64,000 nt of DNA from an uncultured delta proteobacterium (GCA_963826785.1 CAWGYD010000006.1:544001-608000); one strand, 5' to 3'; numbered from the stretch's first letter, positions 47,475-56,283 are shown. Numbers and translations are program-made. Notes: a model not told the origin generated them from the sequence alone.

Positions 47475-48920
47475 TCAGGGCTCCGATGTCTCTTCCCGAT
47501 AGGGTGCCGCATCGATGCCCAGGCGGCGCATGATCTTCTGGAGGGACGGGCGCCCGAGCCCGGAGAGCTCTGCGCTTTTGGTGACATTGCCGCCGGTCCT
47601 CTCGAAAAGGTCCAGGATATAGCGCCGGGTGAACCGCTCGATCACCCGCTCCTTGGCCTCCCGGTATGGTTCCTTCGGAATCTCATTTTCCTGTTCAAAA
47701 ACAGATTCGGAAAACGGCATCCGTCCCGCCGGTTGATCCGCGTCGCTCAGAAAACCCCTCAGCCGGTCCGAACTGATAATTTCATTTCCTGAAAAGATAA
47801 CGGTCTGGCGGACGGTATTTTGAAGCTGCCGTATATTGCCGGGCCAGGCCGCATTAGACAGCAGCTGCAGCGCCTCGGGGGAGAACTGCCGCTGATCGAG
47901 ATGAAGTTCTTCTGATGCGATTTTGGCGAAATGATTGGCCAGAAGAGGGATATCCGCTGCGGTCTCCTGCAGGCTCGGCGTCTTGAGGCTCACCACGTTC
48001 AAGCGGTAAAACAGGTCTTCCCGGAAGGTCCGGTCCCGGATTTTTTCCTCCAGGTTCTGGTTGGTGGCGGCGATGATCCGCACGTCGACGGAGACCGGTT
48101 TCACCGACCCCAAAGGCTTGATCTCCCCGTCCTGCAATGCCCGCAGCAGCTTGGTCTGAACGGTGACGGGGATATCGGCGATCTCGTCGAGAAACAGCGT
48201 GCCGCCGTCCGCCTCCTCGAAAAGCCCCCGCTGGTCGCGCTCCGCACCGGTAAACGCCCCCCGCTTGTGCCCGAACAGCTCGCTTTCCAGCAGGTGTTCC
48301 GGGATGGCGGGGCAGTTGACCACCACCAGATCGCGCCGGCTGCGTCGGCTCTCCGCATGAACGGCCCGGGCGGTCAGCTCCTTGCCCGTGCCGCTTTCCC
48401 CCCGGATCAGGACGCTGTAGTCCGATCGGGCCACGGCCATAATCTTGTCGAACAGCTGCCGCATGGCCGGGCTGCGGCCGATCATGCCGTGGAAATCGGT
48501 CTTTTCAACCTTGCCGCGCAGAACCCGGTTCTCCCGGATGAGGCGGTTTCGTTCCAGCCCTTTTTCCAGCACCCGCAGCAGCGTCTCCTTTTCAAAGGGC
48601 TTGGTGATGAAATCGTAGGCCCCGGCCTTCATGGCGTCCACCGCCATTTCGATGGTGCCGTGGGCGGTCATGATGATGCAGGTCAGCAGCGGGTCATGCC
48701 GTTTCAGAACGCTCAGCAGATCGATGCCGTCCATGCCGGGCATGCGCACATCCAGAAGAACGACATCCGGTGCCTGGCGGCGGAAAATGTCCACTGCCTG
48801 GCGCGGGTCTGCGCAGGTGGCCACTTGCAGCTCCGGCAATTCATAGCCCAGAAGACGCCTGATCCCCTCAAGCATGTCGACTTCATCATCAATAATCAGC
48901 AGTTTGTCGTAATTCATCAT
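47475..48920 (-). CDS. Sigma54-dependent response regulator (REC-AAA+-HTH)
   Basis: [26 protein letters not shown] and WPGNIRQL. Confidence 0.93.
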
Positions 48921-51487
48921 CCTATACCGTTTTCCTGCCGCCGGGCAGGCAATTGAATATTAAATTCCGTGTATTCTCCGATTTCCGTTTCCACGGTCAG
49001 TTCGCCCCCGTGATCCTTGATGATGCCGTAGCTCACGGACAGGCCCAGGCCGGTTCCCTCTCCAGTCTGCTTGGTGCTGAAGAAGGGATCGAATATTTTG
49101 CCGATGATCTCCGGCGCAATTCCCGATCCGTTGTCCCGGATGGCGATCTCGATGACAGACCGGTTTTTGTCGAAGCGGGTGCACACCCGCACCTGCCCGG
49201 GAGGCTCAACAATGGCCTGGTTGGCATTCATGAGCAGGTTTAAGAAAACCTGTTTCATTTTATCCACATCCATGGAGAGGACCGGCAGGTTTTGGTCGAG
49301 CTCGGTTTCGATCTCCGTTCCGCTCTTCTGGAATTGATGCCTTAGCATCTCGATGACTTCGGACAGGGCCGTGTTGATGTTGGCGGGCTGGGACCGGGTT
49401 TTCCGGCGCCTGGAAAAATTGAGCAGATCGGAAACGATGCGCCGGCAGTTTCCGGCCTGCTTTTCCACGATTTCAATGTCCTGAACGGCCTGTTCGTCGC
49501 CTTTGATCTGCCGTTTGAGCAGGTCCGTGTAACACAGGATGATGCCCATGGGATTGTTGATTTCATGGGCAACGCCCGCGGCCAGCTGACCCAGGGCAGC
49601 CATTTTTTCCGTCTGCTGGATGCGGTTCTCCACCTGTTTTTCCAGGGTGATGTCCCTTGCGTAGCGCAGGATTCCCCATATTTTATCGGCTTCATCGAGT
49701 ATGGGATAATAATAGACCATGAATATTTCGCCGGAAGCGGTGGTGATTTCTTCCTTGGCCGGTTGATGCGTGGACATGGCCTGGGAAAGCTGCCTTCCGG
49801 CCAGGGGCCATTCGCAGCCGTTTTCCAGTGGCCGGCATTTCTGGTTCAGCGCCTCCTCCAGGGTGATTGAGTGCCGTTTCAGATAGGCGCGGTTGGCCAT
49901 GCGGATGTCGAGATCGGGGCTCAGCAGGACCATCATGTCCGGTATGCCGTCAAACACGCTCTGGAGAAGCTCCTTGCTCTGCAGAAGCGCGGCAAAGTTG
50001 TTCAAGCTGTCAATGGTGATGCCGATCTGCTGGCCGATGGACATGAGCAGGGACTGCATTTCCGAAGACCGGTCTTTCAGGTCGATGCCCACGAAGGTCA
50101 TCACCCCCAGCACCCGTTCCCGGCAGACCAGGGGCACATTGAGACAGGTCTGGTTCTGCATGCAGGCAAAGTGGCTCATTTCCCCGTGTGCCGCCGTCCA
50201 GATGGATTCCTTCAAAGTGGAGGGCACCTGCCCGGATGCGGGCCTGTCCCCGGCTTTTATGGTGGGTGAAAGCTTATCGGCATTGCGCTGGTATTCCATG
50301 GCCAGGGCCGGGTTGTTCTTATCGCCGGAAAAGAGGTAGATGGCGGCCCCCCTGGCCGGAATGAGCGACAGGGTCTGCTCCAGCACCCCCGGAAAGATGT
50401 CCGTCAGGCGAAAGGAGCGTGTGGTGAGTTCGGCAATGCGGTTCAAGGTCAGCAGTTCCAGATCCCGGGCAGCCACTTTTTCTTTCAGCCGGGCGCGTGA
50501 AGATTCCAGGTCCCGGGTCCGATTATTGACGCGGACCTCCAGGTCCTCGGCATATCGGACCAGGTCCCGGCGGGCTTTTTGAAGATGGGCGGTCAGTTCC
50601 CGGGCGGCTTCGGACAGTTCGTGAATTTCATTCTTGCTGGAGGCTTCGGTTAAAAGCGCGATCTCCCGGTCATCCATCAACCCCCGCCGGAATATCCCCA
50701 GAAGGTCACGCAGGCTGTGAACCACCATGCGGTTGAACAAAAAACTGATGAGAACGTACATGAATATCAACATGACCAGCGTGGCACAGAAGACGGAAAA
50801 AGCCTTGCCTCGAATTTTGGCCAGCGCATCCTGGACGGGAATGCTCACCACGGTGATCCCGGCCAGCTGGTTTTCCCGGTAGCCGAACCCGCGTTTATCG
50901 CCGTACATCCTGATCAGCGACGGGGGCGCATCTTCGGGCCTTCCGTGGCAGTTCAGACACGAAGCGGTCATGAACACCGGCTGGGCATCCAGAAATCCAC
51001 TCGTGCCGCCGATCTCCCGTATGCCCTGCCAGTGCTTTTCCAGGGGATGTTTTTGGAAATATTCGATCATCTCCCGTTCCACGGGCGTGGGCGCCGATAC
51101 CGGGTTGCGGGCTTTTAAGGCCACCCTGCGGTACCGGTACATGGGCATGGATTCGTGAAATTTGTCCATTACCGCCCGGGATACGAAAGAGGTGGACATG
51201 GCTTCCATGATAAACGCATCCCGGCCGACCACTTCATACATCTTCGGACGCAGAATGCCCTGCACATAGGCCTGGGTGGATTCCACCGCCGCCAGAACGA
51301 TACGGGATTTGTTTAAGGCCTCCTGCTCGATGTGGTTTTTTTCGTGTGCATAGATCAGCCAGGCGGTCAGTCCGCAGAACAGCAGAAAAATCGTTCCCAG
51401 GGCGATCTGGAACTGGACCTGCAGTCCGCTACGTCGCCGTCCGCCGCGCTTCGGGTGATGCCCGTCGGCATCCGCTTGTTCATTCAT
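48917..51487 (-). CDS. Sensor histidine kinase with periplasmic heme-c (DUF3365/Tll0287-like), GAF and PAS domains
   Basis: CLNCH between two TM helices; HEINNP, DNGSGI and FFSTK..GEGTGLGL. Start taken at MNEQ (uncertain). Confidence 0.88.
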   Translation of the reverse strand: MNEQADADGHHPKRGGRRRSGLQVQFQIALGTIFLLFCGLTAWLIYAHEKNHIEQEALNKSRIVLAAVESTQAYVQGILRPKMYEVVGRDAFIMEAMSTSFVSRAVMDKFHESMPMYRYRRVALKARNPVSAPTPVEREMIEYFQKHPLEKHWQGIREIGGTSGFLDAQPVFMTASCLNCHGRPEDAPPSLIRMYGDKRGFGYRENQLAGITVVSIPVQDALAKIRGKAFSVFCATLVMLIFMYVLISFLFNRMVVHSLRDLLGIFRRGLMDDREIALLTEASSKNEIHELSEAARELTAHLQKARRDLVRYAEDLEVRVNNRTRDLESSRARLKEKVAARDLELLTLNRIAELTTRSFRLTDIFPGVLEQTLSLIPARGAAIYLFSGDKNNPALAMEYQRNADKLSPTIKAGDRPASGQVPSTLKESIWTAAHGEMSHFACMQNQTCLNVPLVCRERVLGVMTFVGIDLKDRSSEMQSLLMSIGQQIGITIDSLNNFAALLQSKELLQSVFDGIPDMMVLLSPDLDIRMANRAYLKRHSITLEEALNQKCRPLENGCEWPLAGRQLSQAMSTHQPAKEEITTASGEIFMVYYYPILDEADKIWGILRYARDITLEKQVENRIQQTEKMAALGQLAAGVAHEINNPMGIILCYTDLLKRQIKGDEQAVQDIEIVEKQAGNCRRIVSDLLNFSRRRKTRSQPANINTALSEVIEMLRHQFQKSGTEIETELDQNLPVLSMDVDKMKQVFLNLLMNANQAIVEPPGQVRVCTRFDKNRSVIEIAIRDNGSGIAPEIIGKIFDPFFSTKQTGEGTGLGLSVSYGIIKDHGGELTVETEIGEYTEFNIQLPARRQENGIG

Positions 51488-51738
51488 GCAAATAAATCCG
51501 ATCTGAATTCCATTTTCACATTCATGCGCTGCCTGCGCCGCCGTCTCCCCTTTTGTTGTCCGGATATCATCTTGAATGCGAAATGGAATAAGAATATAGG
51601 CCAGTGCGATTAAAACCAGGTTCCTTAGCAAAAGATGTACCACATGAACAGAATAAATGATCAGGAGTGCCGGATAAAAGCCCGGCACGCGCAGGAAATC
51701 GAATTGATTTTGTTTTATCGAGGCGCCCTCTGGTGAAG

Positions 51739-56162: not shown

Positions 56163-56236
56163 TTTCGACCGGGAAAATATTGCTGGACTGAAAACATGAT
56201 CCTGTGACTGCGGATCCGGTCGGTCCGTCACCATAG

Positions 56237-56283
56237 GAAATCCCCTTCGTCCCATTTATGAAAGATGGGCTGAAGGGGATTTC
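56237..56283. terminator. Terminator between convergent genes
   Basis: GAAATCCCCTTC..CCCAT / ATGGG..GAAGGGGATTTC. Confidence 0.7.

Follow-up and report, generated by a model that had tools for sequence, protein, structure and literature searches.

A YeiH transporter locus with a predicted selenocysteine-containing split-Soret cytochrome in a sulfate-reducing delta proteobacterium, a very likely relative of the DVU0946/DVU0539 regulon

What does a YeiH-type transporter do in a sulfate-reducing bacterium when its gene shares an operon with a putative selenocysteine-containing cytochrome and an outer-membrane barrel, and faces the genes of a heme-motif kinase and a sigma-54-dependent regulator? 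The question is raised by a locus (47475..56283) of a delta proteobacterium (GCA_963826785.1, CAWGYD010000006.1:544001-608000; this 64,000-nt stretch is called the window below). The host carries dsrA and is a sulfate-reducing bacterium; its assembly is 87.8% complete and also encodes NarG, a YeeE-type pair (a possible thiosulfate importer), and three molybdoenzymes (partial sequences) that match PhsA strongly but below the cut-off. The initial annotation saw in the locus a self-contained, undescribed module that admits, redox-converts and exports a sulfur or selenium oxyanion. All the parts it listed were recovered in place from the window sequence and Pfam searches, including the terminator, a strong hairpin that a simple terminator scan misses and beyond which lies a convergent cyclopropane-fatty-acid synthase gene (Table 1). 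A search of positions 46000-58000 against Rfam gave no match above the gathering score.

Table 1. Features of the locus, in window coordinates
Feature	Position	Strand	Basis
Sigma-54-dependent response regulator, 481 aa	47475..48920	-	Pfam
Heme-motif sensor histidine kinase, 856 aa	48917..51487	-	PF11845; start inferred from the L069 homologue
Second sigma-54 promoter, predicted, kinase-facing	51627..51643	-	Similar to the minus-strand box in L069, L021
Palindromic enhancer	51738..51765 (core TGCC-N10-GGCA, 51743-51760)	.	Motif frame and fold z
Sigma-54 -24/-12 box, predicted yeiH-operon promoter	51868..51884	+	
YeiH/UPF0324 (PSE) inner-membrane transporter, 476 aa, ~10 predicted TM segments	51989..53419	+	PF03601
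Soluble four-Cys protein, 75 aa	53541..53768	+	Homologue alignment; complex model
Split-Soret cytochrome c homologue, 287 aa with TGA read as Sec80	53932..54795	+	PF09719
SECIS-like hairpin, 8 bp, 4-nt loop, beginning 15 nt past the UGA	54187..54206	+	
Outer-membrane beta-barrel, OprO/OprP-like, 423 aa, signal peptide	54891..56162	+	PF07396
Strong hairpin closing the operon	~56236..56284	+	-35.8 kcal/mol, z -6.5

The proposed activator site and -24/-12 promoter are borne out by genome-wide counts: among the 42 strict sigma-54 boxes of the genome, only two are preceded at 60-260 nt by an exact TGCC-N10-GGCA, and these are the two boxes of this locus. The palindrome has a fold z of -4.8, and the second box, missing from the earlier description, lies on the minus strand, 118 nt from it. 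In homologous loci the TGC-N12-GCA frame precedes the box in 14 out of 17 cases against 1.1 expected, the 17 being the loci with a detected box (18 out of 35 had none under the strict pattern) and the motif having been originally derived from three of the loci counted. Since the two divergent boxes share a single enhancer, and this arrangement is kept in relatives, co-regulation by the divergent kinase–regulator pair, as initially proposed, is supported; the second box is predicted to drive the kinase and regulator genes, i.e., to provide autoregulation.

The two regulatory proteins are what they had been taken for. The regulator combines receiver, AAA+ and Fis HTH domains with the GAFTGA motif (Pfam), and in a quick tree it forms one clade with other YeiH- or cytochrome-linked regulators (SH-aLRT 98). 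The kinase begins with an sCache_heme (Tll0287-like) sensor domain (PF11845, 125.8 bits; structure 5b82, E 1e-9), followed by GAF, PAS, HisKA, and HATPase domains, and its CLNCH motif falls between two predicted transmembrane helices (28-46 and 232-250), in a periplasmic loop. With PF11845, a periplasmic CxxCH and the HisKA/HATPase fusion, it belongs to the sCache_heme histidine kinases.

The locus is less of a unit than the term "self-contained" implies. The window YeiH matches PF03601 (153.9 bits, cut-off 24.5) and falls below the TIGR00698 cut-off (76.2 bits against 232.6). In 401 genomes of the order, the sensor is found within 10 kb at 43 out of 146 YeiH places, and, sorted by sensor similarity, YeiH lies within 10 kb in nine out of nine closest, 33 out of 67 intermediate, and one out of 50 distant cases. 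The heme kinase, the sigma-54 regulator and YeiH are the only three components regularly found together, and they form the conserved core, for which the expected co-conservation holds. It does not extend to the cytochrome, an accessory component near YeiH at four out of 146 places, nor to the porin, which is swappable: in the closest locus (L069) both the porin and the YeiH subtype are replaced, and OprD-family porins stand in for the window porin in L021 and L069. The window YeiH shares only ~30% identity with the long subtype that the regulon usually carries, the equivalence of the two resting on the L069 swap. Across genomes, the cytochrome and YeiH show no co-occurrence (8/25 vs 139/401, odds ratio 0.88, p 0.83), with YeiH detected by one query, which missed the copy in genome G010. 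A conserved six-gene cassette was rejected, since the full set of six orthologues did not turn up a second time among 104 cytochrome loci, many shorter than 5 kb, or in 20 further regions around sensor matches, and the cytochrome was absent from 19 regions around YeiH matches.

Four Cys residues are invariant among the 75-aa protein and 30 other homologues, and the gene for the protein follows yeiH of the window-type clade in nine out of ten other genomes and in both plasmids checked. The modelled complex of the protein with YeiH scores 0.68 against 0.00 for the best control, and the protein is predicted to plug invariant residues of the transporter. An Atlas assignment to BssC/TutF (0.83) was discarded as below the reliable range. 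For the porin, the barrel stands, with porins as the nearest Atlas clusters and 602 homologues, while the label "anion-type" depends on a weak match to part of PF07396 (25.3 bits, cut-off 20.9); a PDB search gave no solved homologue, and the single-sequence structure model has a pLDDT of 30. An MtrB-type porin–cytochrome conduit was set aside, the barrel being ~400 aa long and OprO/P-like.

The cytochrome matches PF09719 (39.8 bits, cut-off 27) and structure 1h21 (sequence E 6e-33; fold E 1e-14, TM 0.80 to the target), and its part C-terminal to the TGA scores 142.8 against a cut-off of 400 in the NF047622 equivalog model. By these matches, the predicted selenoprotein is homologous to split-Soret cytochromes and falls in a selenoprotein family already listed. 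It carries a twin-arginine (Tat) signal, the lipobox AAGC, heme motifs C252/C255/H256 and C274/C277/H278, and the non-heme positions U80, C122, C192, and C216, the first encoded by an in-frame TGA at 54169. In 17 homologous genes a TGA occupies this alignment column, where a Cys is otherwise conserved, and a covarying hairpin lies downstream (70.6% paired; covariation higher than in each of 500 shuffles and in every slid control). On average 5.6 out of eight SECIS-like pairs are kept in the 17 TGA homologues, compared to 3.8 out of eight in 74 Cys homologues; the two tests use related sequences and thus are not independent. Decoding as selenocysteine is supported, and, on the conserved column together with the hairpin comparison, a plain stop or a broken gene is rejected. 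The host assembly has tRNA-Sec and six further genes with TGA at Sec positions (two FdhA, three MvhD, one HesB); its selA is split by a frameshift, as are four out of 46 genes tested, and searches of this 87.8%-complete assembly recovered neither selB nor selD. In related TGA genomes, selB is present in five out of five. In a FastTree phylogeny, all five inspected members of the window cytochrome clade have Sec, the lipobox and an adjoining porin. Split-Soret cytochromes c are characterized by a split Soret band and a non-heme iron centre. An iron centre is named in the title of PDB entry 1h21; in a literature search covering mostly non-subscription papers, we found none joining a split-Soret cytochrome with selenocysteine or a selenoprotein.

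Nor is the system undescribed. According to the accessible text of Rajeev 2011 (PMC3333781), a site of the same architecture, recognized by DVU0946/DVU0539 of Desulfovibrio vulgaris Hildenborough (TGCAAA-N6-TTTGCA, EMSA-validated, with DAP-chip data), had been connected with transporters of the UPF0324/YeiH type and with the gene of a split-Soret cytochrome. The window system very likely belongs with this regulon, judging by a chain of related loci. Sites intermediate between the window and DVU types occur in L049 and L223; in L227 the site shares its arms with the DVU0540 site and lies next to a regulator 54% identical to that of the window; and the order yeiH–small gene–heme kinase–regulator in L222 is that of DVU0943-0946, DVU0943 and DVU2133 being UPF0324 proteins. 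The homology is indirect: within the regulator clade it is read from the gene layout of L222 and from the sites of L223 and L227.

Fitness data for strain G20 point to a probable substrate. There, Dde_0876 carries the regulon site and heads the same layout as DVU0943-0946, and its mutants have a fitness of -0.92 on lactate/thiosulfate, the lowest of 49 experiments in the published G20 tables, which include one thiosulfate experiment (-0.72 and -1.12 in the two strains); other experiments average -0.05 ± 0.10, a comparison confined to the values of this one gene. The text of the source paper is silent on this defect. For scale, phsA scores -0.79 on thiosulfate; the kinase Dde_0878 is also at its lowest there (-0.33), and the regulator mutant scores -0.13 (rank 12 out of 49). 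A sulfur-oxyanion theme is upheld by this thiosulfate-specific defect and by locus L016, where the gene order is aprA-qmo-YeiH-cytochrome-dsrA. In L068, a TsuA-like gene pair follows the cytochrome, and a Hyphomicrobium YeiH is induced 526-fold by thiosulfate (PMC11582611, accessible part). Redox conversion fares worse: the cassette has no quinone-linked partner and therefore lacks an internal electron path, and loss of the cytochrome in G20 brings no thiosulfate defect (-0.13). Export is doubtful too, as the G20 pattern agrees with uptake at least as well.

Taken together, we give about even odds (roughly 0.5) to a DVU0946-type regulon in which the heme-motif kinase would respond to a sulfur or redox cue in the periplasm and YeiH probably imports thiosulfate for sulfite reductase, the Sec cytochrome and the porin being lineage-specific additions. 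By analogy with the DAP-chip and EMSA data on DVU0539/DVU0946, the phosphorylated regulator would bind the enhancer and drive both the yeiH–small gene–cytochrome–porin operon and its own kinase–regulator operon. Entry of the anion would be by the porin at the outer membrane and then by YeiH at the inner membrane, the latter possibly gated from the cytoplasmic side by the four-Cys protein. Most speculatively, the diheme lipoprotein, in which Sec would fill one of four non-heme Cys positions, may bind the periplasmic anion or relay electrons to it via partners encoded elsewhere; it would not be needed for the core function. Counting against this reading are the single thiosulfate experiment, the small effect in the G20 regulator mutant, the low identity between the two YeiH subtypes, the Salmonella, NO and lactate findings discussed below, and the alternative import route that the YeeE-type pair of the host may offer.

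An unlikely but substantial competitor, closest in direction to the initial annotation, is that the regulon detects sulfite, or stress from reactive sulfur, and YeiH pumps sulfite out, with the cytochrome and porin helping in its disposal. Thiosulfate reduction releases sulfite, and sulfite formed in this way could account for the G20 defect. In addition, yeiH is the main sulfite-resistance gene of Salmonella, which suggests export (PMC12880088, accessible part), and SuyZ/YeiH has been argued to extrude sulfite (PMC11582611, likewise). However, growth on 10 mM sulfite as the acceptor brings only a slight impairment of the Dde_0876 mutant (mean -0.15, six experiments), and a DsrAB-containing cell consumes sulfite. 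Our literature search gave no pertinent paper on YeiH and sulfite in sulfate-reducing bacteria. A bolder form of the uptake reading, which we regard as doubtful, makes this a non-YeeE thiosulfate uptake route widespread in sulfate reducers: the heme-c kinase would read periplasmic thiosulfate, YeiH would import it under the control of a metal-binding four-Cys plug at the cytoplasmic face, and, in one clade, the porin and the lipid-anchored Sec split-Soret cytochrome would capture or activate it as it enters.

It is improbable that the heme senses NO, nitrite or the periplasmic redox state, with the cytochrome as a general electron carrier and the sulfur link secondary. The only signalling sCache_heme protein studied binds NO tightly (10.64898/2026.02.01.703092, accessible part), the window sensor retains the conserved Met (AMST) with no distal Cys conserved in the sensor alignment, the host has NarG, and the ssc transcript of D. 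desulfuricans responds to NO and nitrate; but under NO it falls rather than rises (PMC5701242, accessible part), the core target is the YeiH transporter and no NO-handling enzyme, and the G20 phenotype is thiosulfate-specific. Less probable still is a carboxylate (lactate/pyruvate) transport regulon, after the lactate link guessed at by Rajeev 2011: further DVU0539 binding sites precede the lactate operon and the gene of a lactate permease, and the substitute porins of L021 and L069 are of the OprD family, but Dde_0876 mutants have no defect in 39 sulfate experiments with eight donors (mean -0.04), no carbon-catabolic gene recurs among the scanned neighbours of sensor-linked YeiH, and PMC6456213 describes the DVU0539 signals as unknown. 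Uptake or detoxification of selenite or selenate, suggested by Sec in the cytochrome and by a selD gene that precedes the cassette by ~2 kb in genome G001, is very improbable, as Sec marks redox chemistry and not selenium handling, Cys versions fill the same slot in L049, L074, and L223, the selD adjacency is seen in one locus only, and nothing else found points to a selenium oxyanion.

Three observations are added to the record, namely, the impairment of Dde_0876 only on thiosulfate, the cytochrome clade with Sec, lipobox and porin, and the predicted four-Cys plug of YeiH. To our knowledge, the thiosulfate uptake route of sulfate reducers is unsettled; for the likely homologous regulon, a binding site was validated in 2011 but a signal is still lacking, and the split-Soret cytochrome has a known structure and no function given in the literature found. 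The bolder uptake reading, if true, would give a first substrate for Ssc and a signal for the DVU0946 regulon. The locus and its relatives turn these three questions into direct tests in genetically tractable Desulfovibrio, and the Sec/Cys pair at one cytochrome position is a natural probe of the non-heme site. All parts come from known families, so the surprise is moderate.

Among known systems, YeiE–YeiH of Salmonella, SuyZ of Paracoccus and Hden_0834 share with the window a PF03601 transporter tied to sulfur oxyanions; they differ in LysR control (in the literature found), in having no heme kinase, cytochrome or porin, and in that the window protein scores under the TIGR00698 cut-off. Signalling proteins of the sCache_heme (DUF3365/Tll0287) type have the same PF11845 domain and CxxCH between transmembrane helices, here fused to a histidine kinase, whereas the member studied is a HAMP-only, NO-binding Pseudomonas protein, with no connection to YeiH in the accessible part of that report (bioRxiv 10.64898/2026.02.01.703092). 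Ssc of Desulfovibrio desulfuricans ATCC 27774 (1h21; PF09719, C_GCAxxG_C_C) has the Tat signal, two CxxCH motifs and four non-heme Cys positions; the window protein is ~32% identical to it, with Sec predicted in place of the first non-heme Cys, a lipobox, and a longer loop before the third conserved Cys. The C-GCAxxG-C-C selenoproteins, forms 1 and 2, belong to the same Pfam family and have one Sec, their table rows in the accessible part of PMC13188914 giving neither function nor gene context. The closest system is the DVU0946/DVU0539 regulon, with a sigma-54 response regulator, an 18-bp TGC-N12-GCA palindrome ahead of a -24/-12 promoter, and a target operon opening with UPF0324/YeiH and a small gene; in G20 and Miyazaki, its site also precedes a split-Soret cytochrome c gene (PMC3333781, PMC4641369, accessible parts). 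The accessible parts of Rajeev 2011 (PMC3333781) and Kazakov 2015 (PMC4641369) name neither the heme domain of the kinase nor the signal. The window differs in the inner bases of the site (TGCC-N10-GGCA vs TGCAAA-N6-TTTGCA), the short YeiH subtype with its four-Cys partner, the co-operonic cytochrome with predicted Sec and a lipobox, and the added porin; the regulon is autoregulated, and the second, predicted sigma-54 box of the window faces the kinase.

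The locus reported in the initial annotation is real and well formed, and all its listed genes and the terminal hairpin are present (see the table).

Features of the sigma-54-associated locus
Feature	Position	Strand
Sigma-54 response regulator	47475-48920	minus
Histidine kinase (sensor) with Tll0287-like PF11845 domain, CLNCH, GAF, PAS and kinase domains	48917-51487	minus
yeiH	51989-53419	plus
ORF, 75 aa (small protein)	53541-53768	plus
ORF, 287 codons, single in-frame TGA (cytochrome)	53932-54795	plus
Porin	54891-56162	plus
Strong hairpin	after porin	plus

Weaker hairpins follow yeiH (53429-53457) and the cytochrome gene (54829-54850), with z of about -1.4 and -1.5, each individually within chance; they could mark a stepwise drop of expression along the operon. 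Genes at 57635-61947, named from ORF translations alone, encode a PspF-like activator, a PspA-like protein, an NfeD-like membrane protein and a flotillin-like protein. In a profile scan, host dsrA scores above the cut-off, and the same genome encodes a NarG-like respiratory nitrate reductase (G000:C1:522875-525043, compared as L247). An open frame at G000:C1:388637, minus strand, contains NVWCAAGK, which we take to be a motif typical of HgcA, and this suggests a candidate mercury-methylation gene in the host.

Conservation of these genes is uneven. Among 401 genomes of the order, 25 carry the cytochrome, 139 YeiH and 103 the sensor, with no co-occurrence of cytochrome and YeiH. By coordinates, the sensor lies within 10 kb at 43 of 146 YeiH places and the cytochrome is found at just four; sensors stand beside YeiH in 9/9 of the closest, 33/67 of the intermediate and 1/50 of the distant cases, counts that include non-independent kin and are lowered by short contigs. 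YeiH occurs near six of 104 other cytochrome loci, and in a phylum sample 4/41 cytochrome places, the window counted and two new ones checked, are within 10 kb of YeiH. In the closest locus, L069, the regulator (82%), sensor (77%) and Sec cytochrome (80%) are retained, but YeiH is of another subtype and is accompanied by a small membrane protein and a porin of the OprD type. L021 combines kinase, YeiH, OprD porin, regulator and Sec cytochrome; L022 and L070 pair a Sec cytochrome with the window-type porin; and L049, L059, L222 and L223 have a cytochrome in which no internal stop was flagged, along with regulator and YeiH. Because of these linkage counts and gene swaps, the cassette consists of a stable core to which replaceable parts are recurrently added, and the proposed reading of the module as "self-contained" is not supported.

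Two variations concern the neighbours of YeiH. A gene of the NF038143 (HYxxLL) family lies directly 3' of YeiH at L059:9796-10380 and L192:8161-8739, with similar ORFs after YeiH in several other loci. In three genomes (L183:2214-5441, L184, L185) a HisKA_3 kinase carrying the Tll0287 sensor, with a LuxR-type regulator, comes after the YeiH and small Cys protein pair, so that sensor and target are unchanged and the output module differs.

The small protein has four invariant Cys in the alignment, no predicted TM segment and no matching Pfam family. It follows the window's YeiH clade in nine of ten other genomes and was undetected in the other loci examined. Its complex model with YeiH scored 0.68, versus 0.00 for the best control, the calibration mark being reached by 116/157 solved pairs and 2/215 mismatched pairs and applying roughly with self-made alignments; the runs showed at least 68% contact agreement and a partner pLDDT of at least 65. 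Modelled contacts join small protein residues 26-46 to YeiH positions 39, 172-173, 240-241 and 428-432, mostly invariant in 22 homologues. The model supports a role of the small protein as a putative plug or gate on the YeiH transport path.

A sequence search matches the cytochrome to split-Soret cytochrome c (1h21; E 6e-33), and in a fold search (model pLDDT 85) 1h21 was the sole match of 293 with E < 0.001. Its TGA occupies one of four non-heme Cys positions, a Cys column invariant across 42 aligned proteins. Among 20 loci preselected by a flagged stop, 17 have TGA in this column and none TAA or TAG, the remaining loci having stops at other places. An 8-bp hairpin 15 nt 3' of the TGA covaries and pairs better in TGA genes than in 74 Cys homologues. 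The family is entered as a selenoprotein family in the tables of two reviews (PMC13188914, PMC9312934). The host assembly encodes tRNA-Sec, and six of its other genes carry TGA where Sec is expected; its selA is frameshifted (G000:C3:45278-46644; L002:1432-2891), and neither selB nor selD was found in this 87.8% complete assembly, where four of 46 tested genes, selA among them, are split. Related TGA genomes carry selB in five of five cases. Because of the conserved TGA column, covarying hairpin, tRNA-Sec, other TGA genes and selB in relatives, Sec decoding of the cytochrome TGA is predicted to be likely in the window's assembly, despite the gaps. The coexistence of tRNA-Sec and at least seven TGA selenoprotein genes with a split selA and undetected selB and selD may reflect assembly error and incompleteness, or else early loss of the Sec trait. 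In genome G001, selD (L022:6205-7164; G001:C51:10309-11232) is found some 2 kb upstream of a kinase–regulator–Sec cytochrome–porin cassette.

In the cytochrome tree, the window falls within a 17-row clade (support 99). TGA, lipobox and adjoining porin were found in all five inspected clade members, those with DNA visible, while four of five Sec homologues outside the clade have no lipobox and the fifth has Cys at a different position. Two full-length clade members carry Cys instead of Sec; three further cytochrome fragments come from contigs equal in length to those of top porin matches, which is circumstantial. In seven metagenome loci (L106, L125, L131-L134, L142; e.g., L131:2207-10107), Cys-type split-Soret homologues adjoin a cassette of GcvH-like proteins, 4Fe-4S protein, NrfD, kinase and sigma-54 regulator, which may be the membrane electron partner missing from the window's operon. 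Other split-Soret homologues (L050, L053, L054, L081, L094, L115, L135, L136, L146) lie amid ArsR, ArsP permease, thioredoxin, DsbD and TauE genes, surroundings that resemble those of arsenic or thiol stress.

The most likely substrate of the transporter core is thiosulfate. Dde_0876, the transporter of the likely homologous regulon in strain G20 and a site-bearing membrane protein according to Rajeev (PMC3333781), is not named in the main text of Price 2014; in its supplementary tables (PMC4215793), from which rows for seven genes were used, its fitness in the one lactate/thiosulfate experiment, -0.92, is the lowest among 49 energy experiments, versus -0.05 +/- 0.10 in the others. The thiosulfate column was verified against the published phsA value of -0.79; the G20 kinase is also minimal on thiosulfate (-0.33), and the values for regulator and cytochrome are close to zero (-0.13 each) (PMC4215793). 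Thiosulfate raises Hyphomicrobium yeiH 526-fold (PMC11582611). In L016, YeiH and cytochrome are flanked by aprA/qmo-like genes and dsrA, and in L068 a TsuA-like pair follows the cytochrome. We put thiosulfate uptake by the core at a probability of about 0.5. Export of sulfite instead, a direction suggested by the sulfite resistance that yeiH confers in Salmonella (PMC12880088), is rather unlikely; the sulfite mean of Dde_0876 is -0.15 (PMC4215793). Against a sulfur ligand of the sensor, we counted the retained Met and absent conserved distal Cys in the aligned domain, and the binding of NO by a signalling member of its family (bioRxiv 10.64898/2026.02.01.703092).

A -24/-12 box is predicted at 51868, and a second sigma-54 box, at 51643 on the minus strand, is directed at the kinase; the palindrome core TGCC-N10-GGCA lies 126 and 118 nt from them, respectively. 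Genome-wide, the exact core is upstream of just two of 42 strict sigma-54 boxes, both at this locus. Among 35 YeiH loci selected for a nearby sensor or regulator, 17 matched the strict box pattern, and 14 of these have TGC-N12-GCA 60-300 nt upstream, versus 1.1 expected from shuffling, the motif having been derived from three of the YeiH loci counted.

The D. vulgaris regulators DVU0946 and DVU0539 recognize an 18-bp TGC(A/T)AA-N6-TT(T/A)GCA site and are self-regulating; their targets are DVU0943-0946, DVU2133-2132 and DVU0542-0545, and in G20 and Miyazaki the site also precedes a gene for split-Soret cytochrome (Rajeev 2011, PMC3333781). DVU0943 and DVU2133 are labelled UPF0324 transporters in Kazakov 2015 (PMC4641369), the accessible part of which gives no substrate data, and the conditions activating DVU0539 are stated as unknown in PMC6456213. 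The window site shares a common frame with the DVU0946/DVU0539 site, intermediate sites occur in L049, L223 and L227, and the gene layout of L222 is that of DVU0943-0946. In a quick regulator tree, one branch (SH-aLRT 98) unites 37 YeiH- or cytochrome-linked regulators with one of eight others; the 11 further sigma-54 regulators of the host in that tree fall outside it. On these grounds the regulon, initially called undescribed, is very likely a variant of the one described in Desulfovibrio and not a new pathway; the Sec lipo-cytochrome with its porin and the predicted plug are the elements for which we found no description in the literature searched.
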